From a virus (Duplodnaviria > Caudoviricetes), in IMG/VR virus record IMGVR_UViG_3300025759_014178, positions 1 through 56,647 of that record: DNA of 56,647 nt. The stretch is one strand, 5' to 3'. The notes beneath the pieces are model-generated. The model ran no database searches. It was not told the DNA's origin and worked only from the letters and a program-made list of their open reading frames with translations. How positions within the stretch are numbered: the stretch's first letter is position 1; the number at the start of each line of letters is the position of its first letter. Position numbers and translations under genes: made by a program. This document shows, in pieces, positions 10,244-36,374 of the stretch.

Positions 10244-10257
10244 CAAAAAATTTAATT

Positions 10258-12053: not shown

Positions 12054-12298
12054 CCGTCCGACTTCATTTGCTTTGAAAGATGCACTAGGTCGCGGTCCGG
12101 TTTTTCAATTACCTTACGGATAGCTTTTGCCTCGTTTCTTTTAGCCTCACGATCTTTGTCAGAAAGTTCTTCGTTTCGAAGAACGTCTTTTTCTAACACA
12201 AGCAAAGATTTTTCCAAATCTATCTTCAGATACTCATTCCAACCTGAACTGTTTAAAAGATTCCGGATTGCCAATATTCGATCTGTATTGTCCATCAA
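12050..12298 (-). CDS. Small portal-linked hypothetical protein
   Basis: ATGA-coupled to the portal stop; LLNSSGWNEYLK helical pattern typical of small post-portal genes. Confidence 0.7.
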   Translation of the reverse strand: MMDNTDRILAIRNLLNSSGWNEYLKIDLEKSLLVLEKDVLRNEELSDKDREAKRNEAKAIRKVIEKPDRDLVHLSKQMKSDG

Positions 12299-14496
12299 GT
12301 CAGTGGCCCCGTGTTGGCCGTAGGTTGTTGCCCTGCTGCATCCATAGCACCTTCAGGCCCACCAGGCAACTCTGACCCCCCTCCGATTTGTATGTTTGTA
12401 GGGATCAAATATCGTTCTGCATTCTGTATCTGGAACGACTTTAAAATATCCACGTAAAACTGCACTGTTTGTAGTTGGATTTGCGGCGGTAGACTGTAGA
12501 ACTCCCTGACAACACTGGCAGCCTGAAGGTTTTGCTGCAACTTTTGTTCCGCGTGATAGCGGGTCATCTCAAGTCTAATATTAAGATCGAGGTGATTGAT
12601 TTCTGCTGGAGACATGACGTCCATTACCGGAGATGCACCTTCAAAAAACTCAAAAACTTCATCTTCATCAAGGTTGGCCATTGTAACCAAGACGGCTTGA
12701 TGAACTAGATCTTCAATCCCGTCTTCAAGATCGGAAACGTAAACGCCAAAAAGCTCATGGCCGCTTAGGTCAATGTTTCGAATACCTGTAGCAAGCTTGG
12801 TGGAGTTTAGGCCGGCCATTTCAGAGTCATTGGCGCTGGCAACCCCACTCATGTTCATCGCCATTTGAAGATTAAACTCAATTAAGTTCTGAAGGTCATT
12901 GGATTTAATATCCTCAAGGTAAACCGTCTCAATTACATCTTGCGCTGTTTTGTCGGGCAACGGCGAATAAGTTCCACCCCAGTTCATCTCGAGGTTTGGA
13001 TTTGAATCACCCTCAATAGTGTTGTAAGGCCGGAAAAGGTCAATTCGGCCAGAGCTTGACTGACTGAAATTCCAACGGTTGAAAGATAAGTCTACAATCT
13101 TTTGGATTGGCTCAAAAATCTCCATGGATCCAATTCCATGCCATCTTCCCTCGACAGGGTTAATTCTAACACATCGGAAGGGGCGCTTTGAGTCTGGCGT
13201 TACATTGGCGACGTGATCATAAAAAAGCGGAATGTTGTTCTTACGATCGTAAACCAAGATCACATCTTCATATCGACCGTCTTCGTTTACATCAAAACGT
13301 AGATAGGTTTCTGCAATTTCGGTGGTTGGCTCCCTTGTCGTGGCTTCAGCCTCTCCCTCTGATGTCATGTCATCTCCCGACTCGTTGAGCTCAGGGCGAG
13401 GCTTGTTTGCGGCCGTGCTTGGCTGTCCGGACTCCGATGCTACTTCTCGAATTAGATTTAGGCCTCGAATGTAGGAATCTTCACTTCCTTGAAGTGAGTT
13501 GTTGTTGACGATCATATCAACTAGCGACATCACCGGCATATCATAAAGGTGACAGATCTGGTCAGCGTCTTGAATCGATTCGGCGTTTAACGGACACAAA
13601 AAATCGCGAAAGTAGACCGTTTTTGATTCTGGCCCCCTGTAATGGGTAACTGTTCTTTCGACTTTTCTAGCCTCGTAATTGCGATTCGCTTGCGTCGGAA
13701 CTGGTGTTACTTGGTCTCGACCCAATATAGACTGGGGAACAAAATCCATTGGGTTTTCACCTTCTGGGATAACTGGTTCAACCTCAATGATGTCATCATC
13801 CGAATAAATGTAGTCGCCATCGGCGGCAATAATTGGATTTCCATCTTCACCTATCATGACCACAGCTTCGGTCTCGTAGGTAACCGACTGGTCAAGATGG
13901 GTCGTTTTAACGACTGCCTCACCCCTTATGAATGCCCCATAAATTGCACGCTCAATCGTCTTTTTAAGCTTCGCTTTCCGAAGTTTAAAATTAGCGTAGC
14001 GGTTTACCTTGTCGGCTTTTTCTTTGTCAGATTCACCTATCGGTGATGCGGCCATGAAAGGCTCAGTTCCTACAAAGTATTTGATTGCTCGGCTGACTTG
14101 TTGCTGAACGATCCTGCGACTAATTGGAACAGTGTGGTTTGATTCTTCAAAAATGCCGCGTAGAATTGACTCTCGCCATTCAACTTGGTTGGCAAAAGTC
14201 ATCTCGTAAATGATTCGGCGCCCTAGAAATGTCTGGGCTGATTTCGCGGCTCTACCGGGATCGCTTGCATACCAATTTACGTCGTAAAGATTTTCACGAC
14301 CCATCTCTCCTTCCAAAGTTTTGTTTCTGGACTCTGCCCATTCGACCAGGCGGTCTTCTTGCTGTCGATTTAACCGTAGTGCTGATTTAATCATAACACG
14401 CGGCTCATCCCTGCGATCAACGGGGGGATATTGCGGGACGTTTTCGAGGACTTTGTCAATTTGAGGTTCTGCCATAAGTCTATCTGGTAGGGCCAA
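12295..14496 (-). CDS. Portal protein
   Basis: 733 aa; AFIRGEAVVK, RPF....NPVEGRWHGIG..E...PIQK..D...N, LATGI motifs of P22/T7-like portals. Confidence 0.88.
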   Translation of the reverse strand: MALPDRLMAEPQIDKVLENVPQYPPVDRRDEPRVMIKSALRLNRQQEDRLVEWAESRNKTLEGEMGRENLYDVNWYASDPGRAAKSAQTFLGRRIIYEMTFANQVEWRESILRGIFEESNHTVPISRRIVQQQVSRAIKYFVGTEPFMAASPIGESDKEKADKVNRYANFKLRKAKLKKTIERAIYGAFIRGEAVVKTTHLDQSVTYETEAVVMIGEDGNPIIAADGDYIYSDDDIIEVEPVIPEGENPMDFVPQSILGRDQVTPVPTQANRNYEARKVERTVTHYRGPESKTVYFRDFLCPLNAESIQDADQICHLYDMPVMSLVDMIVNNNSLQGSEDSYIRGLNLIREVASESGQPSTAANKPRPELNESGDDMTSEGEAEATTREPTTEIAETYLRFDVNEDGRYEDVILVYDRKNNIPLFYDHVANVTPDSKRPFRCVRINPVEGRWHGIGSMEIFEPIQKIVDLSFNRWNFSQSSSGRIDLFRPYNTIEGDSNPNLEMNWGGTYSPLPDKTAQDVIETVYLEDIKSNDLQNLIEFNLQMAMNMSGVASANDSEMAGLNSTKLATGIRNIDLSGHELFGVYVSDLEDGIEDLVHQAVLVTMANLDEDEVFEFFEGASPVMDVMSPAEINHLDLNIRLEMTRYHAEQKLQQNLQAASVVREFYSLPPQIQLQTVQFYVDILKSFQIQNAERYLIPTNIQIGGGSELPGGPEGAMDAAGQQPTANTGPLT

Positions 14497-17400
14497 TATA
14501 TCGGCCGTTTATAAAAAGTTGATCTTTGGCTTCCCTTCGAGCCTCGGAAAGCAACGCTTTGAAATCTTTCAGGTCATCTTCCGTTGGTCTGCTAATCTTT
14601 AACGGGTTAGCCCACTGATTGACTTTGACCGAGAATTTTTGTCCTGCAAGTTTTGAAAACGCATTGCGTTGTTCATCTGTCATATCTTCCCATTCGCCAA
14701 CGCTATTTTTAAATTTGTTTGTGGTAGATCCACCCCAGGATGTCGGGAATGTGCTAATTAGATCAGGGCGCTTTATAGAAAGCGAAGACAGAAACGCATC
14801 GCCTTTGTGAAGATCAGCGGCGGCGTATGGAGTCCGAACTAGCAACCTTGCTGGCCCGACAAGAGTCTTTTCAAGATCTCTTCCGTAAAGGTCGTGCTTA
14901 GGCAGACCAAATGCGCCAACATTTGTCAGACTGTAGAGGTATCCGGATCGATCTCGAGGAACTGGATCAAGCTGTCGAAGCGGCTGCCTAATTAGGTTTG
15001 GAACAAAGCCTCTCAAGAAATCCTTAATGCTTTTTGCAATCTGTTCTTCCGCTTTCTCCGGATTTCGGTTAATCATGTCGTTGCCCATACTGATTGTGTC
15101 AGCAACTGTTCGTATTCCTTGAAGAAAAGTTTTTTCTTGCGCTTGGTTTGCTAAAGATCCAGCAAAGTTTACAAGCCATGTCTGACCATCGGTGTTAGGG
15201 TTTTTCTTAAACTCTCGAATCATGTCAACTGTCGAAGCCAGCACGGTGGAAATAGGCTCGTATCGACCGTAATCAATGTGAATACCGTTTCTTCCGCCAA
15301 TCCGAATGATGGTGCTGCTTCCATATAGACGATCTGCAAGCTGGCGATCCGAGTGTCCACCAGGAGCATAAGGACGAGATCCCACGATAAGCAAGTTTTT
15401 GTCTTCGTCATCTTCGTCCCCTTCTGCGGCGCCAAAAAGAATTGTCATTACGACACTTGCTATGCCCTGCTCTGTAATATCCCGAATCAATTCCGACCGA
15501 CCCGCCTCACCGTAGTTGGCATTGAAAGACATTTTTCCTTCAGGTCCGTAAGTTGCAATTCCAGATTTGATAACTTTGTAGAAAAGATTTGCCGTCCCGG
15601 TTATGGGAGCTTTTCGAAGGCCAATCTCAAAGATTCTGTAGGGAGTTCGGATGAACGGAAACAAAAAGCTAAGTCCCATTTTAATCATCGATTGCTCGGC
15701 TTTTTGTATTTTTGCATTTCGGAATTTTTGAACCATCGACATCCACTGCTCTCTTTTCGAAGCTTCTGGGTCAGCTCGAAATTCTTTAGTAAAAGTCAAT
15801 TCTTTTGCTTTTCCGATTGCAAGAATCCAAGCCGGACTACCGTGTTCCATTAGTTCCTCAATCCGGCTTTCCATTTGATCTTGTCGCAAGTCGCCAACTT
15901 GAACTTGAGCGTTCGCTATTCGATAAGCCTGAACTGCCACTTCGCCCATGGCAATGGATGTCTTAAACAAAGTGTCCATTGCTTGAAGGGCATTTCCAGG
16001 CATTCTAATTATCCTGCCTTTTCGACCTTGAATGCTTGGCAAGTAGGCCGATTCAACTTTAGACGCATCAAATTGGGACACTGGTTCCTGCATAGCCCAA
16101 GACTCGAAAAAGTCGAGCCCGTCATTCTTGAATGAGGACACAGCGTTTCTCCATGCGGGGGCTATTCCTTTAGAAAAACCTTTCCAAAATCTTCGGATGT
16201 CTCCGTATTGAGCTCCTTGAGCTTTGTCGCCTGGAATGATTTGATTAAAAATCGACTCGAGGCCGGTTTGAATAGTTTTGTCCCAGCCAAGGTTTAAAGA
16301 GTTTGAGAAAACATTTATAGCCTGTGTTTGTGGCCCTGATAAAATTGAGTTTATCCAAAACTCATTGATAGCATTGTAAATGTTCCCGTTGAACACTGTA
16401 GCAAGAGTTCGCGCCGCCCAAACTGCGTGCTCCGGTTTTGCAATATCGAACTGGCCACTTTCTTCACCGTGAAATTGGTTTGCGTTCCGGACATCTTCCG
16501 GCACAAGCACAAACTCATCCGAAAGGCTTTGCTCATCCCGTTGCGCCATTTGCTGGGTCGCTTTTCCAAATTCTAGGCGAAGAGCCTTGCGGAAATCTTC
16601 CTCAAACTTTCTGATCTTCTCTTCGGTAATCCCTAGTTTCTTTTGTATCTTTTTGTTTGGCTGCCTATTGAGGATCATTTTGGCAGCGTCTTTGCCTACC
16701 TCAGATCTCATTCTATCTATTGCGGCTTTTACAGCCGGAGCCTGTCTGGAAGCCCTAATTCGATCGCCATTAAAAATATCGCGCAAAGTAACGCCGTAAG
16801 TTCCAAGAACATTCTTGGCGGTCTCCATGCGTTTTTGTTGAATCTCTGCGTCAACTTCGGCTGCTTTGATTTCCTCCCTGAGCGTCTTTAACTCATTTTT
16901 ATAGCGATTAGCTTCCTCAGGACTTTTGGCCTCTGAAATCAATTTGTGAACCTCTTTGATGCGATCTTGACGTTGTGGGTTCATGGCAAGATCTCTAATC
17001 CTGCGTTCTTCTGAGGCGGTATGTTCAGAAAAGCCCAAGAAAGACGCGATCATTTCCGCGTGACGTTCTGCCGGAGTTTTTGATGGGTCTCGGCCGGCCG
17101 CCAGTTCTCTAGCTACCTCAGTGCGCGTCCTTTGGTAAGCGTGAGAAAGAAGCCTCGCTCGTGAAATTGCTTGTGGGTCTTCTGAGGCTGTAGCGTCTCT
17201 CCAAGCTCGTGAAAGGACGATCTTGGCCGCGTAAACCATCTCAGCACTCCCAAGAGATGTGCGATTAGATCCCGCTTCCAGTATAGCGTTTTCAACTGCC
17301 GCAGGCGTTTGGTCGGCCATGCGGCGCCCTTCAGCCATCATGTCAGGCTCGCTTAGCTTTTCGCGCTCTCGATCGTATGCCCATTGAACTACTGAATGAG

Positions 17401-20400
17401 CGGCTCGAACATTTTCATCATCTGAAATATTGGCAAGTCGAGGAACCGCGGTCTGCACTTCTCCCTCCACTTCCTTTTTCCGTTCTTGCAGGTCGCTGAT
17501 AAAATCTGCAAGAGAGCCGACTTCCTCGGAAAGAACACGGGCTGCGTCGACTGCTTCGTCATCAATAGATCCTTCTTCATCTAGGTTTCCAATGTCGCGC
17601 TGGGCGGCCCCTTGGAATACTCTTTCTGCTATTTCAAGATCTCCAAGCCCTTTGACTTCAGCTACCTGAGAAGGCAAAAGCGCTACAGTTTTTGGTCTTC
17701 CACTTCCTTCTTCGTCAACCAGGATTGCGTCGTATCCCTGACTGCGGGACCAGTTTGCAACCAATGGCGTTTCAAGAAGGCCCCAGTGCGCTAGGTCAAC
17801 GCTTTGGTCAATCCATTCCGGAACTGTGTAAGGCCCAGTGATCACTTCAAAATCTTTATCGATGGCAAAGCCCTGCCGGTCCATTTCATCAGCAAGCTCG
17901 AGTTGAGTCTGACTTGGCTCTCCCACTTGGGGAATCCCGCGAAGCGCACGACGACGAATCCCCAGCACGTCAGCAAGGATGTCTCGGACTGACTCCACGT
18001 TATCTTGGAGATAACTCTTGAGGGCCGCTCCGGCTTCTCCGGTTGGGTCTAGCGGGTTTCGAATGTCAACCCATACCGGAACCGGATCGCCATAGTCTGA
18101 GGCGAGTTCAATAGGTCCGACAAAGACCAAGCCAGTGTCTGGACGGCCAGAGCCACTGATGCGGTCACCCCCATGAAAGTAAATTGATTGATCTACCGAC
18201 TCTGGGAAGGCGCTGTCTCGGGCGGCTGCGAATTGACTCAGTCTTCCGCCGCTAGGTCCGGATACTGAAGGAGGTATGCCTCCTCCAGACTGACCTCCCG
18301 GCCCCTCCGGATCTCCATCGCCTCGCGGGTCTCCTGAAGGCCCTCGATCTCCGCTGGGGTTAGGCCCATCTCCGCTTCCGTCATCCCACGCAAAGGAGGG
18401 AGTGAAGTTTGCTGTAAGGGCTGATCGGACATTACTAAAATCGGTTGATGATTTATTATTGTCCCATAATTCAGCGACTTCAGCAACCATTTTCGGACCC
18501 TTGCCAGCAAATATTTGACGGATCATTTCCCAAGTAATCGACTGCATCTGGCGGGGCTGAATACCGCGCTGTGCGGCAGCATCGCGAAGAGCCTCAAGGT
18601 GCGCCCAATAAAGTCCCGTGAGACCATTTCCTGCTGATCCAGAGGTGGAAGTTGTCGTTCCATCTGGAAGGTTGAATCCTGAACTGCTACCAAAATTGAC
18701 TCCTACTTGGTAATCCTTTTGAGCCAGTGGGAACATGAAAGCAGCGGCAACGTGATGGGTGTCGATAGTTCCGTCACCATACCCGTTATTCGGAGCAATG
18801 ATGTTATTGTAAAAATTTCTCACTTTGTGGTCATTGCTGATGGATGCACTAATATTCTCCAGAGATCCATCCTGAAGAACGCTAAACGCATTCCAGACCC
18901 CAGAAGCCGCTTGCCACCCCATGCCGGCAGGCTGTCCCGCTTTTGTCTGGGCTATGCCACCAACCCTACCCTCGGGATAGATCGTCTTGTAGTTCAGCCC
19001 GTGGACCTCACCGGTAAGGAATCGGAAAGCCCAATAGAAATCTGATTTAACCTTTTTGTCTTTCGTCGCCTCGGTTAGCAGGTCACGGAGTGTTTTTCCT
19101 TCCGCGTATGCCAGTTCTTCTGGCACGCTTTCATACAAGGCAAATGACTTAGGATCTTTGGCGTCCGCTTTTCGGATGGGGCGGTCCATGTGATTTTGCC
19201 AAACGTCCATAAGGTTGTGTCCCATCTGCACGTTCTGAAACCAATCTTTTCCTGGGCTTAGAGTGGCAAAAACGCCAGCGGCCTGTTCAGCAGTAACTCC
19301 ATAATCAGAAGCGGCATTGTCGGCCAGAATCCTCGCCCCGTCATACCAAAGCGAAGCCCTTTGCCTGAGTTTTTCTCCGTTGGGAATAGTGTCATAAAGG
19401 TCATGGAGGAAAAGTAGGTTTTCGACAAAGAAGTCATGAAGGCGCTTGGCTCTCGTTTCAGCAGTCAGTCGTTTGTCTGAAAAGTATCTCGGAAGTGGCA
19501 CCTCGATCCCCTTGATCTTTTTCGCGATGCGATCATATCGAGGCAACGTGAAGTGGGTCATCATCCCCATCTGTTTTTCAAGATGCTCAGGCGCGACCCT
19601 TTCTCTGGTCACGATATCTTCTTGGCTGGGTATTTTGTTCCCCTGTTTGGCTGTGCCAATACGGGAAGCATCGTGGATGGAACTTACGGAGTTAAACCCA
19701 CTGCTCCCAGAACTTCTCTGCGCGGGAAACTGACGCTGGGCGGCTTCTTGAAGCAAGTCGGATTTAGGGTTAAACCTCTGGCTGAGAGGGATCACGTTGC
19801 CGTCTGCATCGCGGGTTACGGGGTCGGCGGATTTGATGAATCCTCTCTCAAGATAAGTGGAGTAACGCTTTGCGGCATCTTTACTTACCATCCAATCAGA
19901 ATCCAAAGACCCTTGATGGTTCAAGGCAAAGTCTACCAATTTAGTTGATACCCCATCCCCCCTAAATTCAGGAGCGACATACATCGCAAAAATCTTAGGA
20001 GGTCTTCCGCTAGGGCGACTACCAGGATTATCTGATGAGACAATAATAAACCCACGAGCCTCACCTCCAACCTCCAGGCTATATCTGGTGAATAAGCTCG
20101 CCCCTGTCACGCTTGTATATGTGCTTATATTTCCATATCTACCTGTTGCCTCCTCCATCGACCCATCGAAGCTGATTGCTTGTGGGGCATTCCAGCGAGC
20201 GAATTGCTTCTCTGTTTTTTCGTCCAACTTCTCGGCGTTTTGCAAATTCTTGATTTGATTGGGAGTAATCCCAATTTTTTTAAACGCCCACTTAGCCATG
20301 TAGTCGTTGCGTCTCCAATACCCCGCAGCCATAGCCGCCTCATCGACCATACGCTGCGCCGTCTCCATGTCGCCGGACTCAACTGCTGCCAAGTAGTCTG

Positions 20401-23400
20401 CATCCTGCTTGGATGAGATACGGGATGCGATGTCCCGAGGGGCTGCCCCTTGCTCGCCTGTCGGAGAATCAAGAAACTCTGCGATCTGAGGTAGCTGGTC
20501 AGCCACTTCACGGGCAGCAACTGCCGAAGTGGTGGAGTTTCTGTCGTCAATCGGTGAGTCAAACTCAATCACCACAATAGAATTTTCACCTACCCCTCCG
20601 GCTGCTTTGATGGTGCCGGGTTGGTTATTATCGCTAGGGGAGGTGACCCTTTTCCCTACCAAGTCTTTTTGAATCCTGCGAAGGTCTTTTGCGGGTAGGG
20701 CATCCGGCCTGAATCCAAGCCAAAATTTAAACCCTTCATCCGACAGCGTTCCAGATGGGTATAGAGGCTCCTCGAGATTGGACTCAGCCGCTCGATACAT
20801 CGCGGTCGCTACCCCGCGACGTCGGAACTCGGGCTTGACGAAGGTCTTGTAGGACATCCTCCTGCCGCGCTCATCCCATCCCCTGGAATGCAGGGCTAGT
20901 TGGCCTGCAAGATTCCTCCCCACGTAAGCACGATAGACATCATCCCCCATATCCTTTACTTGGATTCCATTTTCTTCGTAAACGACCGGCCTAGAGGCTG
21001 CGCTTTGGTCACCAGCCCTACCGGTGGTGTGCTTGAACCACTGTTCTGCGGTAGGCTCTTTCAAAGCGATCAGGACCTCACCGTCTCTAATCACGTTACC
21101 TTTGCCGAACACGGTCTCGATGAGTCCGCGGTAGTAGTTGAGCGATTCACCGACCTGAAATTGATCGCGATCACCCACCTGACCCTTTTCAGGAGCTCTG
21201 TAGATCGTAACGTAGAACTTCCCTCCGGGCTTGAGGGCATTCTCAGCTTGAAGAATAAGTCGCCGCTGGTTTGTCTTCTCGGGGATGAGGTTCAGGACGT
21301 TGTTGGTCACCACCACATCAGACTTTCCGTCAATCGCTTCCGCAAGTGCCTTTTTGACGTCGTCGGATCTTTCTTCCCACTGTGGGTCATAAGAGTAAAA
21401 CTGAGCTCCCATTTCCTCCACCGCGCTGTCGGCGTAACGAAAGGGTCCTGTCCCAATGTCGAGAACTTTTTGACCTGGTTTTATCAGGCCTTTGTCGCTC
21501 AGGTATCTGTATCCGGCTGGGATTCCTCCGGCATTGCCTCGCGCCGTGTCTTTAGACGAGAATCTCTGTTTTGGCTTGCCCCATAGGTCAATGGATCTCC
21601 GAGCCGCTCCCTGAGCTCTGTTTTCAATTTGGCGATCTTCTTCCGCTTTTCTTCCTGCCTCGAGGCGTCGATCAAGATCTTTGAGGGTCCACTCGACTGG
21701 TTTTTTGCGGTTTGGCTTTCCTCCTGCGAGGAGCCAGATTTGGGAGTTTGTGAGAGTAGCGACTGGGGAGAGTGCATGCTTTGATAGTAATTCAGATACG
21801 GCTTCAATTCCACCAATTTCACCTTCGCGGTAATAATCATCAATATACGTGAGGGCTTCGCTTGTTGGCTGAAGAACCCATCCAGGCCCATTTTGTGGGC
21901 TATTTGGAGAAGCTATCGCAACAGATGCCACCACGGTCCCTCCCTGCTCTTGAATGTAAGAGCGCATTGAGTTGAATGTAGAGCCCGAAGTGGAAACGTC
22001 GTCAACTAAGACGTATTCTTTTGTAGGATCAATTTCACCGCCATATTGAGGAACTCTGAAAAGTCTTTCCCACGCATTGGCTTTGGTATGATTTGCCTGA
22101 CCTACCTCGTGGAGGCTTTCCTCCATTGGCATCCCCGTCGTGTGGGAGATCCAAGCGGCCATCGCTTCTGGAATTGCGTTGGTGAAATTATTTTCTCGAC
22201 TGTTAGGAGTCGCAAGCACGGCACCTGGATAGAGACTTGCAAGCTCCTGAGCCTTCTCTGGTTTCATTACTTCCGTAACGATTTCCATAGCAGCATCAAG
22301 GTCACCTTTTTTGGCTCTTTCGTGACGGGCTTCCTTCTCTGATCCCTTCTTGCCTTTGAGCGCGACTAAGGTCGAGTGAGACTGGACCATAGGAAAATTC
22401 ATGGGCCAAGTTTGCATCTCGCGCTGAGCTGCGTTTTGACGTTTCGGTCTCGTCCGGAATACTTTAGTAAAATCCAATTCCCCTTCTTGACCTGTCATCT
22501 GGTCTCGGGCTTGGAGTTTATAATTGTCCGTAGAAATAACTTCGAAAGAACGACCTCCATGGTCGATCGACCGGATTGTATCTCCGCGTTTAAGATCTTT
22601 GCTGACGGCCCAGATCGAAAGTGCTGCGGTGGCTTCTTTAGGATTGTCAAACATCCCGATCACTTGCCTCTCGGGGCGCCCTACCTCTACATGCCACATG
22701 GTGTCCGGGTGCTTGGATAGGTGGACAAGTGCGCCTGACTTCCTGATGGCGTGCATCTGGTATTCGCTTCGGGCAAGTTGATCAGCTTCAAATCGCTGGG
22801 CGCTTGCTTGTAGGCCTTTTGGTTGGGTCGCTGCGTGCTGGAGAATGTGCTCAATGACTGGCACGGCCCACGAGTTTCCGGCCCCTGCATATTTATTCCC
22901 GTTGGCAACATCGGGAACATCGCTCAAATATTCATCTGGCAATCCCATCAAGCGAGCCGTTTCGGCCATCGAAAACTTTCTGTATTGCCCTTGTTTGTCT
23001 ACAAGCAGGTTTTTTGGATAACCTTTGTCCATCGACTTGACTAGGGCCATAGCCTTCGGGCGCCTGACGTCGGAGTGATTGGAATTGTTCCAACGAATTG
23101 TTCCATTGGCCTTAGGTTTGCTCATGAAGGCGTCGACCTTCGCCCGATTCCACAGCAAATCTTTTGAGGCCCGTGGTTGGATTACATGCTTCAGTTCAAC
23201 CCCAATGTCCATTGGTTGAGTCACTGAGATATTGGTCCAATAAAGCCGATCCCTGTTTGCTCCCGTGAGAAGATTGCCATTTATCCGAATTGGGGCCACG
23301 CCCAAGGCGCGGGTGATGATCGCCTCGTCCTCAGGCTTCATCCTGACGTTCTCGAGGAGGAAAAAGCGTGGTGCAGTTTTCTTCCAGAGACGCACATAAT

Positions 23401-26400
23401 CCCAGAACAGCTTTGAACGAGGGTCTTCCATACCCTTGCGCTTCCCTGCGCGTGAAAACCCTTGGCAGGGCGACCCTCCCCACAACAAATCGATTTTGGG
23501 GATTTCATCGCCTGTGACTTTAGTCACATCACCTAGTTCTTGAATGTCTGGGTGGTTGTGTTTTGCAATTGCGATTGCCGATTTCTCAATTTCAGAACCG
23601 TAGTAGTTATCGACCGGAACCGCTAGGTTTTTAAGCGCCTGTCGACCGGCCGCAATTCCATCAAACAATGACAAAACGTTCCAGCCGCCGTTTGGTCCGG
23701 ATCCCTTCGGCCATTGAATGTCGCCCGATACTTCAATTAGACGTCCGGCCCTGTCGCGGGTGTTCCCGAAGGCATCAGGTCGTCGATTGATGGACTGTCG
23801 GCGTGCAGCCGCTTGAAGATCGGGTAAACTTTGTTGAGCAGACTGTGTCCGTTCGGTTGCCTCAGTATCGACCTCACTACCGACCTGAGATGATTCCTGG
23901 TCGACGCGTGAGCCAGGTGCGATATCCACATTGCTTCCAAGTCGGAAATTGGCGCCGTCTCGGCCTGTTGGGGTTCCTTGGATGAATACTGCGTAGTCAT
24001 GGGAGTCATTTTGGTCTTGTTGGGAATCTACCCGTTGGAGAAACTGTTGTAGATCGGTTTCTGTGAAAATTGTCTCGAGGTCATCCGCGAGTTCATCAAT
24101 AATATTTAAGTTCTCAAGAGCCATTCTTGAGACGTTTTCTGTCAATTGATAGGTATAGTTTTCGCTGGCATCTCCAAACCCGCCATTGTGGGTAATCTCG
24201 TGGAGCATTGTCGTGACAGAATCGGTGGCGAATTTCCTAACGATGGTCCCGTATTGATCAAGTCCCAGGCGTTTGCTGTTTTCGATGGATCGGTTTAAAA
24301 TGATTGAAGGGTCGAGAGAAATTGCATACTCTTTTTCCCCAATGACATTTAAGTCTTGTTCGCCTACGTGAACCTTAGTTTTGTAGTTCACTCCGATTGC
24401 ATCTTGACCGATGTTCCAAGCGACTAGGTCTCCTTTTTCGGCGGCGTCAAAACCGTTATCCATCAAAACCGTTTGAACTCGCTTGAATGTAGCGGCCATT
24501 TTGGCAAACAGTTGGTTTGACGGCTCGTGGTTGACAATCTCTTGCGCCAGTTCAGAATTGCTCCCTGAAACGTCTACGACCCGGATATTCCGGACGCTTG
24601 GAAGTGTCATTGTTGGCGATGCGTCCCAACGGGACTTGAGCGCCTTATTCTTGGACACCATGGCGTCCTGTTCGTAGTTCTTGTAGAACGATTCATTACG
24701 GCCTATTGCAACACCGTGAAAATTGTCTCTGCCGGCTGTGAAGGGGTAATCGTCATGTGTGGCATCGACATTAGGATGAACATCGATAACGAGTTTTTCG
24801 GGTAGTTGGACTTGCGCTGTAATGTCGGCAATTGTCGAAAACTGCCATATTCCTCGGTTGAGAACTTGTATAACAAGACGATTGCTGGAAACCAGATTTT
24901 CAGATCGGTAAATTTTGTAGTTTGCCTCTAGCGCGTTGACCTGCTTGATGAACTCAAGATCTTGTGAAGTGTTCTTGAGTCTTTTAATGGCTTTTCGCCC
25001 TTCAGGAGTTTTCTCAGTAAGATCATCTACAGAAAGACCGGCACCAGTTGTCCCTATTTCAAATTCGGTGCCTGTTGTGTCGTTTTCAGAAATCAATTCA
25101 AAAGTTTTCTCTGCCATAGAGAAATCAAATTGGACGCTGTCGTCGATCGTTGATCTAACCCGAGTGTAGGTAGTAGGTTTTCCGGTGACGTAGACGGAAT
25201 CCTCCATTTCAGATGAAAGATATTTTTTAAGCGCCTCTCCAAGCTTTATATCTTCTTCTGCTACACTGAATCCAAAGTTTGAAAAATATGCTTGTTCTGG
25301 CGATCTGCCGATGAAGCCTGCAAAATCGTCACCTTTGTTAAAATAGCCCTTTAGAACAACGCCGTTCCATTCTTCATCTACACTGACCGGTTCTTGATTC
25401 AACGGTCTCAAACCAGCCTCTGGAAATTTTTCAGCCCAGTGGTCGTAGATTTTCTTTTGCAGCGGCGGTGGAAGCTGGCCTATGAGGCCTTTAAAAGTCC
25501 TTGAAATATCGCTTAATCCAGACGCATTCGAATCCTTCGTAAACGCAGAAAACCTATCAATAAATTTTTGGTCTACATCTGCAAAAACGTCGATTTGGTT
25601 TTCAATGTAACTGCGATATTCTGCCACTGAACTTTTAAGAGCATCAGCGCTCCCATGATACCTATCATCACCAACCCAAGAACGGACCCAGTCATCAAGA
25701 TAGCCTGAAATTTGGCTTTCCTCATCATTGATAATTGAAGCTATTTCTTCAATGGATTCTTCATTTTGAAACACCTCTGGTAAATTTGGAATCAATTCAG
25801 GAGATACTTCTAGTCTGACTTGATAGCCGGCGTGCTTGAACCGTATGCCTTCAGGAAAGGCATTACCAGTTGGGAGATATTTGCCTGTGAGTTCGGCATT
25901 AGTTTGGTTAAACCACTCGCTTTCTATTTTGACTTCTTCGGGCTCGAGCGCCTCGCTTGGCTCAAAATTCCTTTCGGTCAAAATCCGAACGCCGTTTGGA
26001 TCTTCATTTATGGTGTTTTCCCAATTTTGGGCATCACCAGTCATGATAGTTTTTGACCAGGATCCATCCCGCTCTTGGTAAACGGTCTCGACTTCAAATT
26101 GCTTGGAGTTTCCAAAAATGACAGCTTTTGCAAGTCCGTAGCCGCCGGCGCCGTCAGTCTCTTTAAATGATTTGGTAATGTCGACCAAGGCGCTGGCCAC
26201 AACTTCGGGCGGCATACCGTGGCCAGTATCAGTTACTTCGATAACACGGTTTTCTGGGTCGAGAAATAACGTGACCTTTTGGTCTTGTGGGCGCTGACCT
26301 TTTGCGATTTGTGGTCGAATAGCGTCGAGAGAGTTCTGAAGGAGCTCTCTGACGATCACCGTCCCCATATCCTGACTGTAAATCTTTCCTCGAGCTACAT

Positions 26401-29400
26401 CTATGATGTCGGATTTCTTCGAAGTAATCAACGGTTTGACCTCTTCAAAGCCTGCCCGTTTTGCGGCCCACTGAAGCGGGTCACGGCGCTTTCTTGCGAC
26501 TCCCCCAAACATACCGTAGACGGGCTTAGCATCAAATACCATTGCGTGGACGGTGTCCATTTCGTTTACTTGGTCCATGCCAGGAAAGTAAGTCGTCGCA
26601 TCCATTATGATGCCGTCATACCCCATCCGGCGCAGCCCGAGCCCCAACAGGAATCCACCTACACCTGGACCTACCGGAATCATGCTGTCGGTGCGCGACC
26701 AAGATTCCGGCGTCATTGGATGCAACCCGAAGACTCTCTGGGCAATTTCGGTCATCGTCATTGAGCCATATTCGCTCAGTTGCAGCTTGGCCTGTTGAAT
26801 CCCATCCCTGAGCTCGGCTATTCCTATCTCGCCAAATTCAATCAAGGTCTCCTCGGCGGTGAAGGAGTCGCGGAGCTCATCTAAAATCCCATTAAAAAGT
26901 TCGGCAATCTCGCCTGATTCGCGAGGGTCATAGTTGGTCTCAAAAGCCATCTCCTGAGCAGCTTCATTGATCTCGTCTTCTTTTTCGCTTTTTACGTAAT
27001 TCTCGAAAGTTCCCAAGTCAGGATAAAGCTCTAAAGCGTCTTCGTATTCCTGCCGCAAATCGGCTTCGTTTTCGAGAATGAGTTTATTTAAAGCATCTTC
27101 TTTGTAAGCGTCTACCTCGTAGTCGATTTCAAAAGTCCACCGGGGCTGATCAACCTCGTATGGCATAATCTGGAACCATTTTTTCCCGTGAAGATAGACT
27201 GGCGTAATCCTTGGGGCATGTTCTACCTCCATGATTTCCTGCGCCTTTAGCATTGCTGTCTCTATATCGAGCCCCTCTTCCTCTGCAATTCTGTCTGCCA
27301 ACTGAACCTGTATTTCTTCGCCGGCCCCATCAGGGTGATTGTCGTAATCGGCATACGCGGAAGCGTCACCAACGTTATTTGTGAAGTAAACCCCAGGCCC
27401 AAGAAAACTACTTGGCCGGCTTGGTATGGAAAACAGGTCGTCGTCAAAGTGGCCGCGATAAAAAGCAACTGGAGTGCCGTCAGGGTTTTTAGTTAAAGGA
27501 TGAGAGTCAGACCAAATTTGAGTTAATTCTTCTGGGTCCTCGCGAAGGGCTGCGTTCTGGATAGGCACCTCGTCGTCGTCCCAGTATTCCTCGCTGTATT
27601 TGGGGAAGTAGTCGTCGATCAACTCATACTCGACCGCTTTCTGGTAGAACCCCTCGGCATCTGCGACGATGTCGGCAACTTCAATCTTCGCATCCCCTCC
27701 CAGTTCACTCCTGAGCCATGCCAGCATGTCCATCCCGGTTACACCGGTCCCGTAACGGAAGACGCCAGTGATGACCGCATCCACATCAGGATCATGATCC
27801 ATGCTGCGGATATTGGCAGGATCCTCAGTCCAGGTGAGATCGTTCTTATCGCCCTCACCCCACTTGGCGTGCTTGTATCCGGTTGGAATATACAGATCAG
27901 TGTCTAGGTCGTCCCCTGTCAGAATTGTGCGAGGATTCGGAAAATTTCGCGGTGCAGCCCCCTGATCTGGGCCAAAGCGATCGGTCGGAAACGGCTGATC
28001 GATTTTCCGAGAACTTCTTTCTACATCCCTTGCTGGTGCGCTTAAATCTTCGGTTCGCTGATTGCGACCCCTAATTTTCGCGGCTTTGTCGAGTTGTTGC
28101 TGAATCGTCTTTTCGGCTTCCTTAGCAATGTTTTCAACTGCTCTCAAATTGAGTCCAAGTTCTTTTCCTATCCGAGTGCTGGAAAACCCTTTGCCTTTTC
28201 GCTCCATTACTTGGCGCTGCTTAGTCGGGAGGGTCTTAACTATGTCGTCTTTAATAATTTCGCCATACCTCCATGCTTCGGCCTCAGACTGAGCGTTATA
28301 GGACAGGATCTTTTCTATTAAATTTGGTCGGATAGTTCCAGGCCGCCCTTCTGCGGGAACCTTTAATTTGTCCAAAAGGTTTTCAATTTCTTGCTGAGCA
28401 GCTTGAATGGCCTCTTCTGCAAAATTCTGACCGCCTTTCTGGGCTGCTTTTTTCAACCCGCGATCAGCGGCTGTGATAAGCTCTTGAACCGACACTCCTG
28501 TTTGGCGGTATTGGGCTGCTACCATCAACGAAATTCCTGATTCGCGAAGATACTCAATCCGATCCTTTGGCGTCTTAATAGTATCGGGGGCTTTTTCTTC
28601 CGCGAACAGGTTCAATGCACCAGACTCTATCTGATTCATTGCTTCAATCGTGTAATCCCGGATGTCCTCAATTTGACGCCTGATGTCTGGATCAAGGTTT
28701 GGATCCTGCAACGAAAAACCAATTGCTTCTGCAAGACTCTCAAGTAACTCGAGGAGCTTGTCCCACATATTTTTGGGCGGCAGCAGCGCCACTGACACTT
28801 GTCCGGTTCGAGCTTGCTCGATAACCATGTTAAGATACTCGTGTCCCATGTAGACCGGATCAAGCATACGCTCAGCCATCTCTCGGTATTGTTCAGGCCA
28901 TTCTTCAATCGGGACAGAGGTAAGGTCGATCCCGTCCTGACGCATCGCCTTGTCGTAAGTGTAACTAAAATACGCTTGGCCTACTGTGTCTTTTGTCTCT
29001 TGGCTAAGTGCCTCGTAAATTTCAGCTACTCTTTCGTCACCGCCTACACTGCGGAGTAACCATCTGACAATATTGTGTGTTGTTTCTTCCGCCATCACCC
29101 CGTCGACAAAGTCAATGGCTTCTTGGATAGATCCTCCTTCCGCGATTCCACTAAGGGCCGCTCGAATGATGTTGGCTGGGTCAACGCGAAGATTTCCAGT
29201 TTGAGTCACCGCCGCTGGTGAAGCCATTCCTTTCATGACTTCCACGTTTCTAAACGCCCCTTCCAGGGCTTTAGTTCGCTGGGCAAGTCGCTCCATTAGC
29301 ATGTAGGCAACGTTTGCAACTTCCTGCTCGGTCAAGTTTGGAAACGATCTTCCTAAAGAGCGCACAACATCCTCTACAATTTGAGGGCCGGCCTGCCTAA

Positions 29401-32400
29401 ACTTGGCCTCACCTGGACCTTGTTGGCCTTGACCAATTCGGAACATGCGAGGGTCATAATCTGGGATCTGACCGACTGTTTCGTCGACCGGAGTATCCTG
29501 TGCTTCTTGTTGCAGTCGCTCTTGTTCTGCAAAGCGATCGCTGGGCAATGGAATCGTTTCTTGTAGTTCGGGCGTTGGGAGTTCACCCATCCGGCCGTCT
29601 TCAATACGTTTGACGGTCTCATCTCTCGACATCTCCACAAGCGCGGCCTGTGCTGGAGCATTTTCAGTTGCCCATTCTATGATTTCTTTATTTACTACCG
29701 GCACCCCTTTGAAATCTTCAATAGCAGGACCAACTCCCAGTTCCTCGTTACCGTTTCGAACTAAGTCCCAGTCGGAATCAGAAAGATATTCGGATCGTCC
29801 TTGGGCAATCTTAGTAGCAATGTTTGCCTGTTGAATCCGAACCCGCTGTGCTCGAAGTTCATTGAGGGCTTTTTCGGCTTCAGCCGCAGCAACAAAACCG
29901 CCAGATTTCTCAGCTTCGAAGAATTGCTTTTCGGCGGTCGCAATGTCCTCATCGATTTGAGCAAGTTGTTCTGCGTTTTCTCTTGTGGCGATAACCTGTC
30001 GGCCCATGCGGCGACCGGCATCTTGCCCTTGCAGCGCCAGTGCGGCCGTCAAAGCCATTTCGGCTTCGCGAGTCTGTGGAGAATCCCAGCCATACGTTTC
30101 AGTGGCGCTTTCTAGCTCCTTTCGCATGACCGCGACAGACTTTCCTCCTGGTTTCGCGGCTTCGCGTGAACCACCGTAAGTAGCGTTGATTTCATCAACT
30201 TCTTCTTGCGTGGGTGGCGCCGACCCATCAGGCATGTTCTCGTAAATAGCTTCCGCAGCATCTTCTCCCTGCAAAGCCTCGAGTTTTGCTTCGGTGGCAC
30301 GAGTAGCTGCATCGATCAAAACGTCTTGACGCCTTTTGGCCTTTCTGAACTTACGACCCAGCATCAAGTTCTCAATGATAGTTGAGCCAAGGCCCATCAA
30401 ACCACCAATCGCGGTTTCTTCGACGATTTGAGTGCCATCTTCGGCAATTCTCTCATTAAACCTTTCTACAAATGAGCGCCCGAGATCTGGGCCGTAGTCG
30501 ACTCCTCCAGCTTCAACCCTTCCTGGGGTAGGAAGAGTAAGTTCGCTTACCGTTACGTTTCCAACGGCCACAAGCCCTTCTTGCCCCCCTTCCGCCAGTG
30601 TGTTTGCAAGAGCGCTGTTAAACTTGCGCCAAAACGTAGGCGGCACTTTGGTCATGTCGACCATTTTGAAAATTCTTTCGATCGGCAAGCCCTCGGTGTA
30701 GCCCAGCCCCATGTAGCCGATCATCGTAAGAATGGATTTTTGAATATTGACCTGTTCGTCAAAATCCAAGTCAGGGTCTGCCGCAGCTCTTTCGGCGGCC
30801 ATTTCAAGTTGCCGAAATCCCTCAGTTGAGTTCACCATTGCTCCCTGAAAGCCTATGAGGCCTAACGGGTGGCTGCCAGCAAAACTAGACTTAGGTCCAA
30901 AACGAAAAATCTTTTCTTCTGGAGACGCTCTTCGAATAAAATTTGATCCCCGCATCGCTCCGGACCTCAAAAGGGACGCCCTGCCAATTAAACCTCCAGC
31001 CCAAAATCCACCCATAGAGCCAAGTCCGGTCATTCCATGAGCAAAGTAGTTTCGATCGTTCAATGGGTTTGTGCCACTTTGCACACCTTCCTCAACCGCT
31101 TCCGCCCACCTTACAAGCGGGTTGTTTTCAATGTCTTCACCAATTACTGCTGAAATGTAATCAAGCTCTTTACCAATTTGCTTTTGAGCATCGGTCGAAA
31201 GTTTTTTGTAAGATTGGCTGTCTTGAAACACTTCCAAAGCTTTTCGATATTGAACAGCGTTGATTTTTTGGGGCGGCATCCACTCTCCGGTTTGCTGGTT
31301 TTTTCCGCCGCCTACCTCGGCTCGCCTAATCGTGTCCTCAGTCCAAATATTGTATTCTTTGCCATGCTCGACATATTTTTCTGAAGGCCGTCTTACCAAT
31401 TCGTTAATCGAGTCTCCTGGTCCCATCATGTGACCAAGAGTCAAAACTCCTTTGGCTGGAAACATATTGACGGCACCAGAAAGAATCCTGATCGGCGCGT
31501 CTGAAAACCCTTTTGGATTAAACCCTTCTCGGCGAGCCTCTTCTCGGACCATGTCCTGAAGTTTCTTCTCCTGCTCGAGGCTAAGTTCCAAATCTCGGCG
31601 CTCTACAAGTTGAATGTTCTCGCCATACATGCCAGCCATCTCGCCGACCACCACTTCACCAAAGAGCTTTTCCGCAAGGCGGTTTTTGAGTTGCTCCTCA
31701 TAAGACAACATCATCATGATCTTGTCTCGGTAGTCGAGAACTGTCATGGGATCTAACATGACTAAGCCGCCATTTTGCTTACGATATTCGTCCAGCGCTT
31801 CCATGTAATCGGTCGAGATGGGCGTATCTGATACGTTTTCTTTTACCCACTCGTCGATAAACGGTTCCAAAGCTTCTGGTTGTTCCAACGACATCCCAGC
31901 TTTCCGAGCTAAATCGATTACTTGAGAGAAGTCACCGCCGCCAGCAAACGCTGCATTTCTGAGGCCCAGGATCTGGTCTTGTAGTTCATTTCTCTCTCTG
32001 CCAAGTCCACCTGGTCCGTAGATTTCGTCGACTTTCTGTTTGTAAAGTCGTTCTCCCTCAACTTCATCAAGAGTCCCAGCAGCGACTTGATTGAATATGT
32101 CTTGAACTCCAGACTTTTTAAATAGCTCTTCGTTGCGCCGTTTGAACTTCTCTATCAAAGCAGACGTAGCTGCGATTTTTTCTGGAGTAATTTGCAACTC
32201 TTCGACGGCAAATTCTGAAGCTTGGCCTCCGCTCAAAACAGCCCTTGTGTCCTCAAGAAACGAAGTCACTATTTCGGGATCAACTCCCACTGGGGCTTTG
32301 TAATCTTCAAACGGGTCAAACGCTGAAGTTTTGAAAATGCCTTCCCCCATCTCCAATCGCAATCTAGGATCTTCGACAACTTTAATTTCTCTTCCGGCTG

Positions 32401-34287: not shown

Positions 34288-35634
34288 TTACCGGCGAACG
34301 CTGTTCTGATCGCGAAACATTTTTCGATCGATCTGATTAGACTTAGCTTGGGAGACCCTTCGCGCATCAGAGGCGGCTCTTGACCCCGCATCCAAAAGCT
34401 CTTTTGCCATTCCTTTGGCGCCCCGTCCCTGTAGACCTGTTTCGTAAATGCCTTCATATCCAGGAACCTTGTCAGTGGAAAAAGCTTCTTTACTAGTCAT
34501 TGGCACGCCAGACCTAGTCTCAAACATCTCGTAGGCGCTGGGTTTATAGGGTTCGATTCCTCGGCTTGCTTGCGCGTATCCACCTCCATACTGAGCAGGG
34601 ATCTCCATAGTTCTAATTTCAGGGCCAGTCCTTTGGGTGGCCCTACCCATTGCAGAATTTTCCATGAAATTCCCAGCGGCTATTTTGCGCTCTTCCATCG
34701 GGAGCGACTTATCGTATGCGTCTCTTGCGGCCGCGTTTGCTTTGCCGGCGTATTCTCGAGCTTCTTTGTTGTAAAGCCGCGTAATACCCTTTTTATCGGT
34801 CGCAGAGCCATATTCCTCAATGTCCTTTTGAGTCTGCATACGATCGGCTACTTGAGCCAGCTTCTTTTCTCTTACCGCTACGGCGCCTTGCGCGGCGGCC
34901 TTGTTAGCATCCTGTCGGTCAAAAAAGCGGTAATGGTCTTCTCTTTCACGACGCTCGGCTTCTTTTCGAAGTTGAAAATTGTCAGTCCCAAGAGAACTAG
35001 ATGGTTTGAATCCGGATGCGGTGGTGGAAAAATCTCTGTAGGGGTTCACTCGGTTTGGATCTAAGTCTTGGGGTTGGCCGTATTTCGAATAACCAAATTT
35101 TGGTCGAATAGGGTTACCGCTTTCATCGACCCTGGAAATGCCAGTGTTTGCGGCGGCCATGTCCGGCTCACGATTTACCTTCTGATCCTGAACTGACTGG
35201 AAAGCTTCAGGCATAGTCATCCCTTTGAATGGACCTTTTTTATATGTCATATTTCCAGCCGGACCACTTGTGTAACCAGATTGATTAAATTGTCTATCAG
35301 CTAGTTGTTCGGGACTGCCTTCGTAAGGGTCCGGCGCTGGCACAGGTTGACGCCTAACGCTTTGCGGGGCATTCGAGCCGTTGTCGCCATCGGTCGGCGT
35401 TCGAGACTGCAAATTGCTGTCGCTGTAATCGGCCTTGCCCATTTGGGCATTTTTCTTGGCACCATAACCCGCTACGGGTTGAGCAGTTCTTCCTACTCCC
35501 CGCAAAGCTCTTTGAGTTTTTTGAGTTTGCGGACTGTTGAAACCATTAATGAACCTACTGTATGGATCATCCGCTTCATTTAAAAATCCTTGTGCGGATT
35601 GGTTAAAGCCGGGCATGTTGTATTGCATCGCCAT
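34288..35634 (-). CDS. Putative ejection / internal virion protein (start probably 35634)
   Basis: Low-complexity Gly/Ala/Gln/Met-rich ORF directly upstream of the giant gene; start inferred from the conserved motif. Confidence 0.7.
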   Translation of the reverse strand: MAMQYNMPGFNQSAQGFLNEADDPYSRFINGFNSPQTQKTQRALRGVGRTAQPVAGYGAKKNAQMGKADYSDSNLQSRTPTDGDNGSNAPQSVRRQPVPAPDPYEGSPEQLADRQFNQSGYTSGPAGNMTYKKGPFKGMTMPEAFQSVQDQKVNREPDMAAANTGISRVDESGNPIRPKFGYSKYGQPQDLDPNRVNPYRDFSTTASGFKPSSSLGTDNFQLRKEAERREREDHYRFFDRQDANKAAAQGAVAVREKKLAQVADRMQTQKDIEEYGSATDKKGITRLYNKEAREYAGKANAAARDAYDKSLPMEERKIAAGNFMENSAMGRATQRTGPEIRTMEIPAQYGGGYAQASRGIEPYKPSAYEMFETRSGVPMTSKEAFSTDKVPGYEGIYETGLQGRGAKGMAKELLDAGSRAASDARRVSQAKSNQIDRKMFRDQNSVRR

Positions 35635-35643
35635 ACCCTCTTT

Positions 35644-35668
35644 CTGAGTGGTGATGGCCAAATGTCAA
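35644..35668 (-). promoter_or_regulatory. Putative late promoter TTGAC-N14-ACTCAG (copy 2)
   Basis: TTGAC 35668-35664, ACTCAG 35649-35644, 9 nt to ATG 35634. Confidence 0.7.
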
Positions 35669-36279: not shown

Positions 36280-36374
36280 TTCTAAAGAAGAAAGCTTAAT
36301 TCCACGGTTTTGTGAATCAAGTCAAAACCCAAATTTCTTGTCTGCCCCCCCCCAAAGAAAAAAGAGGGTAACGT

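Follow-up and report, generated by a model that had tools for sequence, protein, structure and literature searches.

The gene analysed here occupies positions 14,480 to 34,273 of a 56,647-nt stretch of DNA from a virus (Duplodnaviria; Caudoviricetes), recorded in IMG/VR as IMGVR_UViG_3300025759_014178; the whole stretch is referred to as the window. We propose, with a probability of about 0.6 for the statement as a whole, that this giant gene encodes a polyvalent cargo or ejection protein of a phage of the short-tailed type, whose modules are separated by a junction peptide acting as a cleavage code. It is very likely that the protein is polyvalent and packaged, whereas the odds that it is cut at the junction motif are about even. 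Polyvalent proteins were defined computationally in 2017. The junction peptide and a conserved C-terminal domain turned out to be the most informative features of the protein, and both were missed in the first reading of the sequence (hereafter the original prediction).

A short peptide recurs at the module borders of the giant protein

The pattern Q-x-[AS]-A-x-R occurs 12 times in the giant protein, against 0.32 copies expected and a maximum of three in 2,000 shuffles (positions in Table 1). The pattern was also recovered by an unbiased enumeration of all three-fixed-residue patterns in the giant protein (P0001), P0002, and P0003, in which 'Q..A.R' ranked first and 'AA.R' second. P0002 and P0003 are relatives of 6,956 and 7,117 residues, encoded on contigs of 56,263 and 59,354 nt; each is a single open frame, and they are 83% and 76% identical to the giant protein over the C-terminal query, respectively. 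All eight Pfam and PHROG domain matches lie wholly between successive copies of the peptide, which thus delimit 13 segments, in agreement with the about 13 domains that had been distinguished from the sequence alone. Q-x-[AS]-A-x-R was not found in the other real open reading frames (ORFs) of the window, and the looser [LQ]-x-[AS]-A-x-R has three copies in their 11,050 residues.

The 12 copies differ in their codons: Arg is specified by six codons, and the mean nucleotide identity is 0.60. What is under selection is therefore the peptide, not the DNA, and DNA microhomology is ruled out as the source of the repeat. The peptide stands in register in 13 of 14 comparisons at seven collinear sites, with exchanges between Gln and Leu. 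Among 163 proteins, the motif is enriched only in P0001–P0003 (11–14 copies) and in the distant P0023 (9 copies, 1.57 expected) and P0062 (6 copies, 0.99 expected), and among 80 IMG/VR loci with the C-terminal domain only in the close clade (L007, L010). Proteins from other branches of the C-terminal-domain family carry repeated motifs of other kinds; P0008 contains L-x-[ST]-Q-P-Q about seven times, and P0005 contains N-x-G-G 11 times, against 1.75 expected.

It is most likely that the junction peptide is read by a protease and thus represents a putative cleavage code. Short, strict motifs that occur only at junctions are a hallmark of viral polyprotein sites and phage head-protease sites, and in the giant protein one such motif likewise stands between the domains. 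The head-protease codes of T4 (L/I-x-Glu) and of phiKZ and SPN3US (S/A/G-x-Glu) resemble it in being short motifs that recur at protein or domain borders of head-internal proteins, although the motif itself is different and profile searches recognised no head protease among the window ORFs. The L/Q-x-A|A shape recalls, as we presume, the Ala-Ser sites of assemblin-type head proteases.

Cassettes are exchanged between strains at the junction peptides

Strains swap whole cassettes, which start and end at junction peptides. P0002 and P0003 are collinear with the giant protein over residues 1–4423 and from residue 5554 to the end, but in residues 4423–5554 unalignable modules replace both GNAT acetyltransferases, DUF7178, and the next module. 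P0003 contains in addition a module of ~185 residues between two junction peptides. The foreign modules of both proteins are bounded by the same peptide, often with Leu in place of Gln. On the L002/L006 contig, which comes from a relative with 94–97% identity, and in L003, residues 4399–4847 with the two GNATs are replaced by a different 3-kb insert, which itself starts with another GNAT.

Exchange was also visible within samples. In three of the four tiling runs (X5, X6, and X15), the cassette of the second GNAT (residues ~4627–4834; 19772–20395) has 2–3 times the contig depth of its flanks and loose ends on both sides, and therefore it is present in other contexts in those samples as well. 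One X15 contig skips 496 nt at this cassette. All breakpoints seen lie within about 25 residues of a junction copy, while the copies with this margin make up ~9% of the protein. This proves that the peptide is a selected junction element.

The GC content within positions 14001–34000 varies from 0.44 to 0.52 per 2-kb step, with the minimum at 24001–26000. This variation inside the gene fits a mosaic of cassettes of different origins.

The C-terminal domain defines a family of giant proteins

A search with residues 5554–6597 retrieved 15 proteins of 3,845–7,117 residues, including the giant protein, mostly on contigs of 56–67 kb. Among 1.84 billion cluster representatives, the C-terminal domain was found in 1,734 at E ≤ 1e-3, in 783 at E ≤ 1e-10, and in 313 at E ≤ 1e-30. 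The domain mostly stands at the far C-terminus of proteins of 2,000–7,117 residues, and in the best 150 matches the conserved part was almost always the very end of the protein. We fetched 159 family proteins, of which 113 have at least 3,000 residues and 50 at least 5,000; the longest reaches 7,117 residues, and five are longer than the giant protein. Giant size is thus a family trait and the norm for this phage group, and it can no longer be counted among the unusual features, as the original prediction had done.

Comparison of module content across relatives, which had been suggested as a check, showed that only the C-terminal domain is shared family-wide and that the cassettes are variable. 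The remainder of the giant protein is common to P0002 and P0003, apart from cassettes scattered in other family proteins: GNATs in 12–16, DUF7178 in 4–5, and a PRTase (phosphoribosyltransferase)-like module in one. In relatives that share this domain, LPD1, LPD3, LPD5, ddrB-ParB, and InPase were found above the cut-off, as were MutS_I, Zeta_toxin, SNF2, and Sigma70_r2.

Several searches related the C-terminal domain to internal virion proteins. The PHROG 6651 profile, 'internal virion protein', matches 19 of 23 aligned members with a best E of 2.7e-17, and the giant protein with an E of 1.1e-5. A tblastn search with the domain gave five weak phage matches (E 5e-7 to 1e-3), four of them annotated as 'internal virion protein D'; these matches are marine T7-like phages (Autographiviridae), with no Stx phage among them. 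In phage HTVC025P, the gene for internal virion protein D lies between those for tail tubular protein B and the tail fibre, which we take to be the position of T7 gene 16. The AF2 model of the domain is mostly helical, with a predicted local distance difference test score (pLDDT) of 78.5 and a predicted template modelling score (pTM) of 0.70. It matches 53 BFVD models at E ≤ 1e-3. They include 'Internal virion protein' of Pelagibacter phage EXVC018P and of Synechococcus phages S-CBP2, S-CBP3, and S-RIP1, together with ART-PolyVal, LPD, and MuF-C proteins; the models that bear the name 'internal virion protein' have template modelling scores of 0.49–0.59 normalised to the query.

The gene order points in the same direction. 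In 60 of the 80 IMG/VR loci with the domain, the giant gene is followed downstream on the same strand by a portal homologue, as in the window, and in 35 the two lie within 200 nt. The ORF that contains the domain reaches the edge of the fetched DNA without a stop in 78 of these loci and is already at least 2,500 residues long there in 45.

Domain content places the giant protein among the polyvalent proteins

The giant protein was compared with the Pfam, PHROG, and NCBIfam profiles and with sequences of the Protein Data Bank (PDB); Pfam cut-offs are quoted per family. A C5 cytosine methyltransferase and a GHKL ATPase were found, as originally predicted, together with two GNAT acetyltransferases, an S-adenosylmethionine (SAM) methyltransferase, and DUF7178, all above the Pfam cut-offs. 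The C5 methylase matches DNMT3 and M.HaeIII chains of the PDB at an E of about 1e-20, and the motifs FDGIAAG, SPCQ, and ENV can be read in its translation. The GHKL domain scores just above the profile cut-offs and has weak matches to HSP90/TRAP1; its N-box (ELLQNSLDA), G1 (DTGHG), and G2 (GAGGYG) are intact in the translation. The same module contains an HExxH motif, which is preserved in P0002 and P0003 and lines up with an HExxH in the distant homologue P0162. Among shorter proteins, the module has one homologue (P0160), which covers the GHKL part only. For the PRTase-like module, the NCBIfam models of adenine and orotate PRTases match below threshold only.

Two further assignments stand on matches that exist but fall short of the threshold, the sigma-like stretch of the original prediction (22.0 against 25.7 bits) and the ADP-ribosyltransferase (ART) module (21.7 against 31.2 bits). 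The sigma-like stretch matches TIGR02937 at model positions 32–165 of 165 with 21.2 bits, the cut-off being 42.9, and in the PDB it matches RpoS at an E of 0.67 only. Sigma70_r2 was found in P0004 and P0006 with 28.6 and 36.0 bits (cut-off 24), and there is no detectable similarity between these proteins and the sigma-like stretch of the giant protein. According to precomputed Pfam annotation, Sigma70_r2 occurs in 4 of the 15 listed proteins that share the C-terminal domain.

A faint similarity links residues 49–119 of the module at 5353–5559 to the alpha C-terminal domain of RNA polymerase (best E 0.017; 0.17–0.29 against several alpha chains) and may serve as a lead. A relation between this module and the ART-like module was considered and dropped, since the best BLASTP E was 0.085. 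The N-terminal 2,100 residues have no family in Pfam, PHROG, or NCBIfam, and the Atlas gave unnamed clusters only (best 0.92); in a phmmer search against 158 family proteins, they match P0002 and P0003 only. The original prediction had placed Gly-rich hydrophobic segments at residues 1080–1310. The protein is indeed rich in Gly around residues 900–1300 (12% in residues 901–1200), but the hydrophobic character is weak: the mean Kyte-Doolittle value stays below 1.3 in every 19-residue window of the protein, and no classical transmembrane helices were found. The earlier statement that no SNF2 helicase is recognisable holds for the giant protein, in which SNF2, Helicase_C, and N6-methylase have no Pfam match at E ≤ 0.01, although SNF2 occurs in relatives. 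A single-subunit RNA polymerase module has no match in Pfam, PHROGs, NCBIfam, or PDB sequences.

As judged from its domains and gene context, the giant protein belongs to the polyvalent proteins described by Iyer et al. (2017; PMC5512222), in line with the original interpretation. Unrelated activities are combined in one chain, namely the C5 methylase, GHKL, SAM methyltransferase, GNATs, the module with the PRPP (phosphoribosyl pyrophosphate) loop, and DUF7178; the context is one of virion genes, with the portal gene adjacent and the major head protein, terminase, and tail fibre genes in the window. The only candidate for a class-specific polyvalent domain in the giant protein itself is ART-PolyVal, at the score below the cut-off given above. 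The text of Iyer et al. describes polyvalent proteins with 2–15 domains and up to 12,242 residues, which share with the giant protein the GNAT, ART, PRTase, methylase, and HExxH themes and the portal-terminase phage context. The methylase described there is an N6-adenine enzyme paired with SNF2, whereas the giant protein has a C5 methylase without a helicase. The original prediction regarded the PRTase as an addition to the class, but a section of that paper is devoted to PRTases. The words 'GHKL' and 'sigma' are absent from its main text, supplementary lists aside, and a repeated junction peptide or cassette exchange at one was likewise not found in its text.

The giant frame is real

The predicted ORF of 6,597 residues was confirmed as an ATG-started frame on the minus strand without an internal stop; its product has a mass of roughly 0.73 MDa. 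Bases 1–148 of the window recur at 56500–56647 with 99% identity, which leaves 56,499 bp of unique sequence; the 19.8-kb single frame takes up 35.0% of it, the same share as first estimated. With this 148-nt overlap of its ends, the contig probably represents a closed and complete genome of about 56.5 kb. If it is closed, the ORF at 1..570 would run on across the contig ends.

The giant frame is real and not an assembly chimera, because contigs of four runs tile the whole gene. Among the runs listed, 20 from 12 studies contain a 10-kb piece of the gene. They are metagenomes from freshwater, molluscs, the sea, and estuaries; 3 are possible sources, and none is an RNA run. The contigs of all four runs, which come from four studies, cover 30 of 30 gene bins, mostly at ≥99% identity, and the sole break in this coverage is one cassette. 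Two contigs, one of them 56,675 nt long and the other shorter, encode the identical giant protein. The contigs thus speak against a chimeric assembly, which the original prediction had named as a possible refutation.

Proposed mode of action and alternative readings

We suggest the following sequence of events, in which delivery with the virion is inferred from homology and gene order. The C-terminal domain would take the protein into the head beside the portal, and at infection the protein would leave through the portal and tail together with the DNA, like the internal proteins of T7-type phages. About 12 exchangeable enzyme or binding cassettes, in residues 2104–5554 upstream of the C-terminal domain, would be its cargo and might act at once after entry. 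The C5 methylase could mark the incoming DNA against restriction; the GNATs, the ART-like and PRTase-like modules, and the GHKL ATPase could act on host proteins or nucleotides; and the sigma-like part might redirect the host RNA polymerase. The polyprotein would be cut at the junction peptide in the head or in the cell, into as many as 13 products. A candidate for the cutting protease is the embedded HExxH module, but relatives use the same code without an HExxH, so that an enzyme encoded elsewhere, by the phage or by the host, is no less likely.

Known systems provide partial precedents for these steps. The nearest experimental one is gp47 of phi24B, likewise a large polyvalent protein of a podovirus (2,811 residues; LPD5, LPD1, LPD38, MuF-C), although it is less than half the size of the giant protein and has other domains. 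According to the preprint text (bioRxiv 10.64898/2026.04.10.717836), mass spectrometry detected gp47 in virions, and an ejection role was proposed for it; the capsid map did not show it. Internal virion protein D of T7-like marine phages (HTVC025P gp39, 1,246 residues) shows distant likeness in sequence and predicted fold to the C-terminal ~650 residues, and the two presumably share the role of a head-stored, ejected protein. Internal virion protein D differs in its size of about 1,200 residues, its lack of enzyme cargo, and the position of its gene, which follows the tail tube genes and does not precede the portal gene. DarB of P1 is described in the text of Iyer et al. (PMC5512222) as a virion-borne anti-restriction protein, in which an N6-adenine methylase (EcoKI/TaqI-like) is fused to an SNF2 helicase. 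The giant protein likewise has a DNA methylase, but the N6-methylase/SNF2 dyad of DarB was not found in it. The virion RNA polymerase of N4 is likewise a giant podovirus protein, stored in the head and injected, and is described in the same text as containing a metallopeptidase domain; its RNA polymerase module was not found in the giant protein. Iyer et al. (PMC5512222) proposed in their text that embedded metallopeptidases cut polyvalent proteins into units.

Several observations weigh against our proposal. Megablast of the gene and tblastn of the portal protein against 50,697 phage records gave no match, and no cultured phage is a close relative. The C-terminal model has no solved structure at E ≤ 1e-3 in Foldseek, and the best VIA match (Z 5.8) concerns short helical pieces only; likeness to T7 gp16 itself is therefore not supported. 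Pfam LPD38 was suggested by an Atlas score of 0.95, yet it has no Pfam match in the giant protein or in 23 aligned homologues, and it was rejected. The fold predicted for the GHKL/HExxH module (residues 2607–3492, five-row alignment) has a mean pLDDT of 38.7 and is unusable. As for the junction peptide, the flanks of the collinear sites are also 70% identical, so that conservation of the motif there is non-discriminating, and most family members lack the peptide (background 0.19 per 1,000 residues). Swaps at the motif show a junction and not cutting, because swaps must respect domain borders anyway. P0023 and P0062 carry the motif and have no HExxH anywhere, which weakens the embedded putative zincin as its reader. 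Regarding the genome, IMG/VR classes the record as linear, with a CheckV completeness of 66%. Regarding the frame, L006 has a 2-nt deletion at about residue 1194 (~3040–3056) within the giant gene, and L003 has a 1-nt insertion (~3213) with the first stop at about residue 4861, a site that is intact in L002; the frameshifts reflect either errors of assembly or split forms that are tolerated.

Part of this evidence would fit a single uncut chain that is packaged and injected whole, the peptide being a structural or recognition element of the linkers for docking, unfolding, or threading through the portal. We regard this as unlikely, though well within reach. The virion RNA polymerase of N4 is packaged unprocessed, according to the text of Iyer et al. 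(PMC5512222), and so a giant protein need not be cut. Selection at the peptide level fits any reader and not a protease alone, the motif persists in the relatives without any HExxH, and the unassigned ORFs of the window contain no protease in Pfam (E ≤ 0.01) or PHROGs (E ≤ 0.1). On the other hand, the confinement of a short, strict motif to junctions is what is known from the protease sites of viral polyproteins and phage heads. In addition, thirteen unrelated activities on one 0.7-MDa chain would be poorly placed to reach their targets, an argument made in the text of Iyer et al. (PMC5512222).

A protein that never enters the virion is far less probable, given what its C-terminus resembles. 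Such a protein would be a late-made intracellular polyprotein of host-takeover enzymes, encoded beside the portal gene by chance; its cargo enzymes could work from inside the infected cell, and packaging is deduced from homology and gene order. The matches of the C-terminal domain to internal virion protein families, the order of giant gene and portal gene in 60 of 80 loci, and the presence of phi24B gp47, a class member, in virions (according to the preprint text) are at odds with it, and enzymes made late would come too late for anti-restriction. The chance that the frame is a chimera, or several genes fused by error, is negligible. The metagenomic origin, the break of the assembly graph at one cassette, and the frameshifts in two relatives could raise this suspicion, but contigs from four studies tile the gene, two contigs encode the identical protein, P0002 and P0003 hold frames of about 7,000 codons, and 45 of the 80 related loci have at least 2,500 open codons and are still unbounded.

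A wider reading can also be offered; it is tentative and has somewhat less than even odds. A large group of uncultured aquatic phages would spend about a third of the genome on one head-stored, injected protein, which would be cut at a clade-private code into a dozen or more effectors, and the code would also mark the points of cassette exchange. The codes would be [L/Q]-x-[A/S]-A-x-R here and L-x-S/T-Q-P-Q and N-x-G-G in other branches. Such a protein would be a plug-and-play arsenal. Its content would turn over within populations, and a C5 methylase, a GHKL ATPase, and a sigma-like factor can be part of it.

The polyvalent class and PRTase cargo are already known, and the size is normal for the phage group. 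Four points seem to be unpublished, with some uncertainty and the supplementary tables of Iyer et al. aside: the junction peptide, the exchange of cassettes at this peptide in natural populations, how far the C-terminal-domain family extends, and the GHKL and C5-methylase cargo. A literature search on polyvalent proteins, directed at junction motifs and at sigma factors in virions, found nothing relevant. The twelve precisely placed sites offer a concrete candidate cleavage code, and the metagenomic evidence indicates that co-occurring strains exchange cassettes at junction sites. With the C-terminal domain as a handle, at least 1,734 protein clusters can be retrieved, most of them of giant cargo proteins. 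This family may represent a large, almost uncharacterised store of effectors, which are likely to counter restriction and to affect host transcription within the first seconds after infection begins.

Features of the gene and its genomic neighbourhood

The features of the giant gene and the genes around it are listed in Table 1. The original prediction placed the gene between a putative ejection gene and the portal gene; the portal gene does adjoin it downstream, while the ORF directly upstream matches nothing and does not support the former assignment. Genes for terminase, RecT with an exonuclease, single-stranded DNA-binding protein, and endolysin are found elsewhere in the window.

Table 1. 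Positions of the giant gene, its segments and junction peptides, and neighbouring features in the window
Feature	Nucleotides	Residues	Strand	Match or remark
Giant ORF	14480..34273	1-6597	minus	6,597 aa, ATG start, no internal stop
N-terminal segment	27965..34273	1-2103	minus	charged helix-like start, Gly-rich middle
Sigma-70/ECF (extracytoplasmic function)-like stretch	28091..28489	~1929-2061	minus	Sigma70_r4_2 22.0 bits, below cut-off 25.7
Junction peptide 1	27947..27964	2104	minus	QGAAPR
Junction peptide 2	27542..27559	2239	minus	QNAALR
ART-PolyVal-like module	26474..27541	2245-2600 (match ~2265-2379)	minus	PF18760 21.7 bits, below cut-off 31.2
Junction peptide 3	26456..26473	2601	minus	QWAAKR
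GHKL (Bergerat) ATPase	26024..26356	~2640-2750	minus	HATPase_c 29.4 bits (cut-off 26.4); HATPase_c_3 28.3 bits (cut-off 25)
HExxH motif HEITH (HEITHNGGFGD)	24188..24202	3358-3362	minus	same 886-aa module as GHKL domain
Junction peptide 4	23798..23815	3487	minus	QAAARR
C5 cytosine DNA methyltransferase	22841..23680	3532-3811	minus	PF00145 145.7 bits; TIGR00675 141.9 bits
Junction peptide 5	22793..22810	3822	minus	QASAQR
Junction peptide 6	22421..22438	3946	minus	QNAAQR
PRTase-like module with PRPP loop VLVDDVSTSGST	21908..22339	~3979-4122	minus	phrog_22413 99.7 bits
Junction peptide 7	21596..21613	4221	minus	QGAARR
Class I SAM methyltransferase	21191..21505	4257-4361	minus	Methyltransf_23 30.2 bits (cut-off 27)
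Junction peptide 8	20990..21007	4423	minus	QSAASR; left edge of swapped region
GNAT acetyltransferase 1	20771..20938	4446-4501	minus	Acetyltransf_10 28.3 bits (cut-off 23.6)
Junction peptide 9	20435..20452	4608	minus	QGAAPR
GNAT acetyltransferase 2	19916..20083	4731-4786	minus	Acetyltransf_1 37.7 bits
Junction peptide 10	19733..19750	4842	minus	QEAAQR
DUF7178	18950..19363	~4971-5108	minus	PF23802 74.5 bits; phrog_3842
Junction peptide 11	18218..18235	5347	minus	QFAAAR
Unassigned 200-aa module	17615..18217	5353-5553	minus	no family match
Junction peptide 12	17597..17614	5554	minus	QGAAQR; right edge of swapped region
Conserved C-terminal part	14483..17596	5560-6597	minus	core aa ~5941-6591 (14483-16453), 'internal virion protein'-like
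Portal gene	12295..14496		minus	SU10_portal (Pfam) 71.4 bits, PHROG 1216; directly downstream, 17-nt overlap with giant ORF
457-aa ORF directly upstream	34288..35661		minus	no match in Pfam, PHROGs, NCBIfam
Major head protein	7561..9096		same as giant gene
Tail fibre	2202..4430		same as giant gene
Terminal overlap	1..148 with 56500-56647		none	99% identity

Two unassigned plus-strand ORFs (10150–10986 and 10995–12053) lie between the portal and head genes, and the one of 352 residues is also present in the relatives L002–L004. A gene of the YAcAr/SLOG family, the second upstream of the giant gene, is located at 35714–36067. Elsewhere in the window are a sulfotransferase-like gene (1–570), an enoyl-CoA hydratase-like gene (38364–38840), and one tRNA-Met (55043–55113). 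Two clusters of overlapping repeats with a period of ~10 nt (GTCCTGTTCT-like) were found 10.9 kb apart, at 36373–36419 and 47265–47336; one is intergenic and the other lies inside the ORF at 46775..47746. These clusters could be iterons or sites for a regulator.

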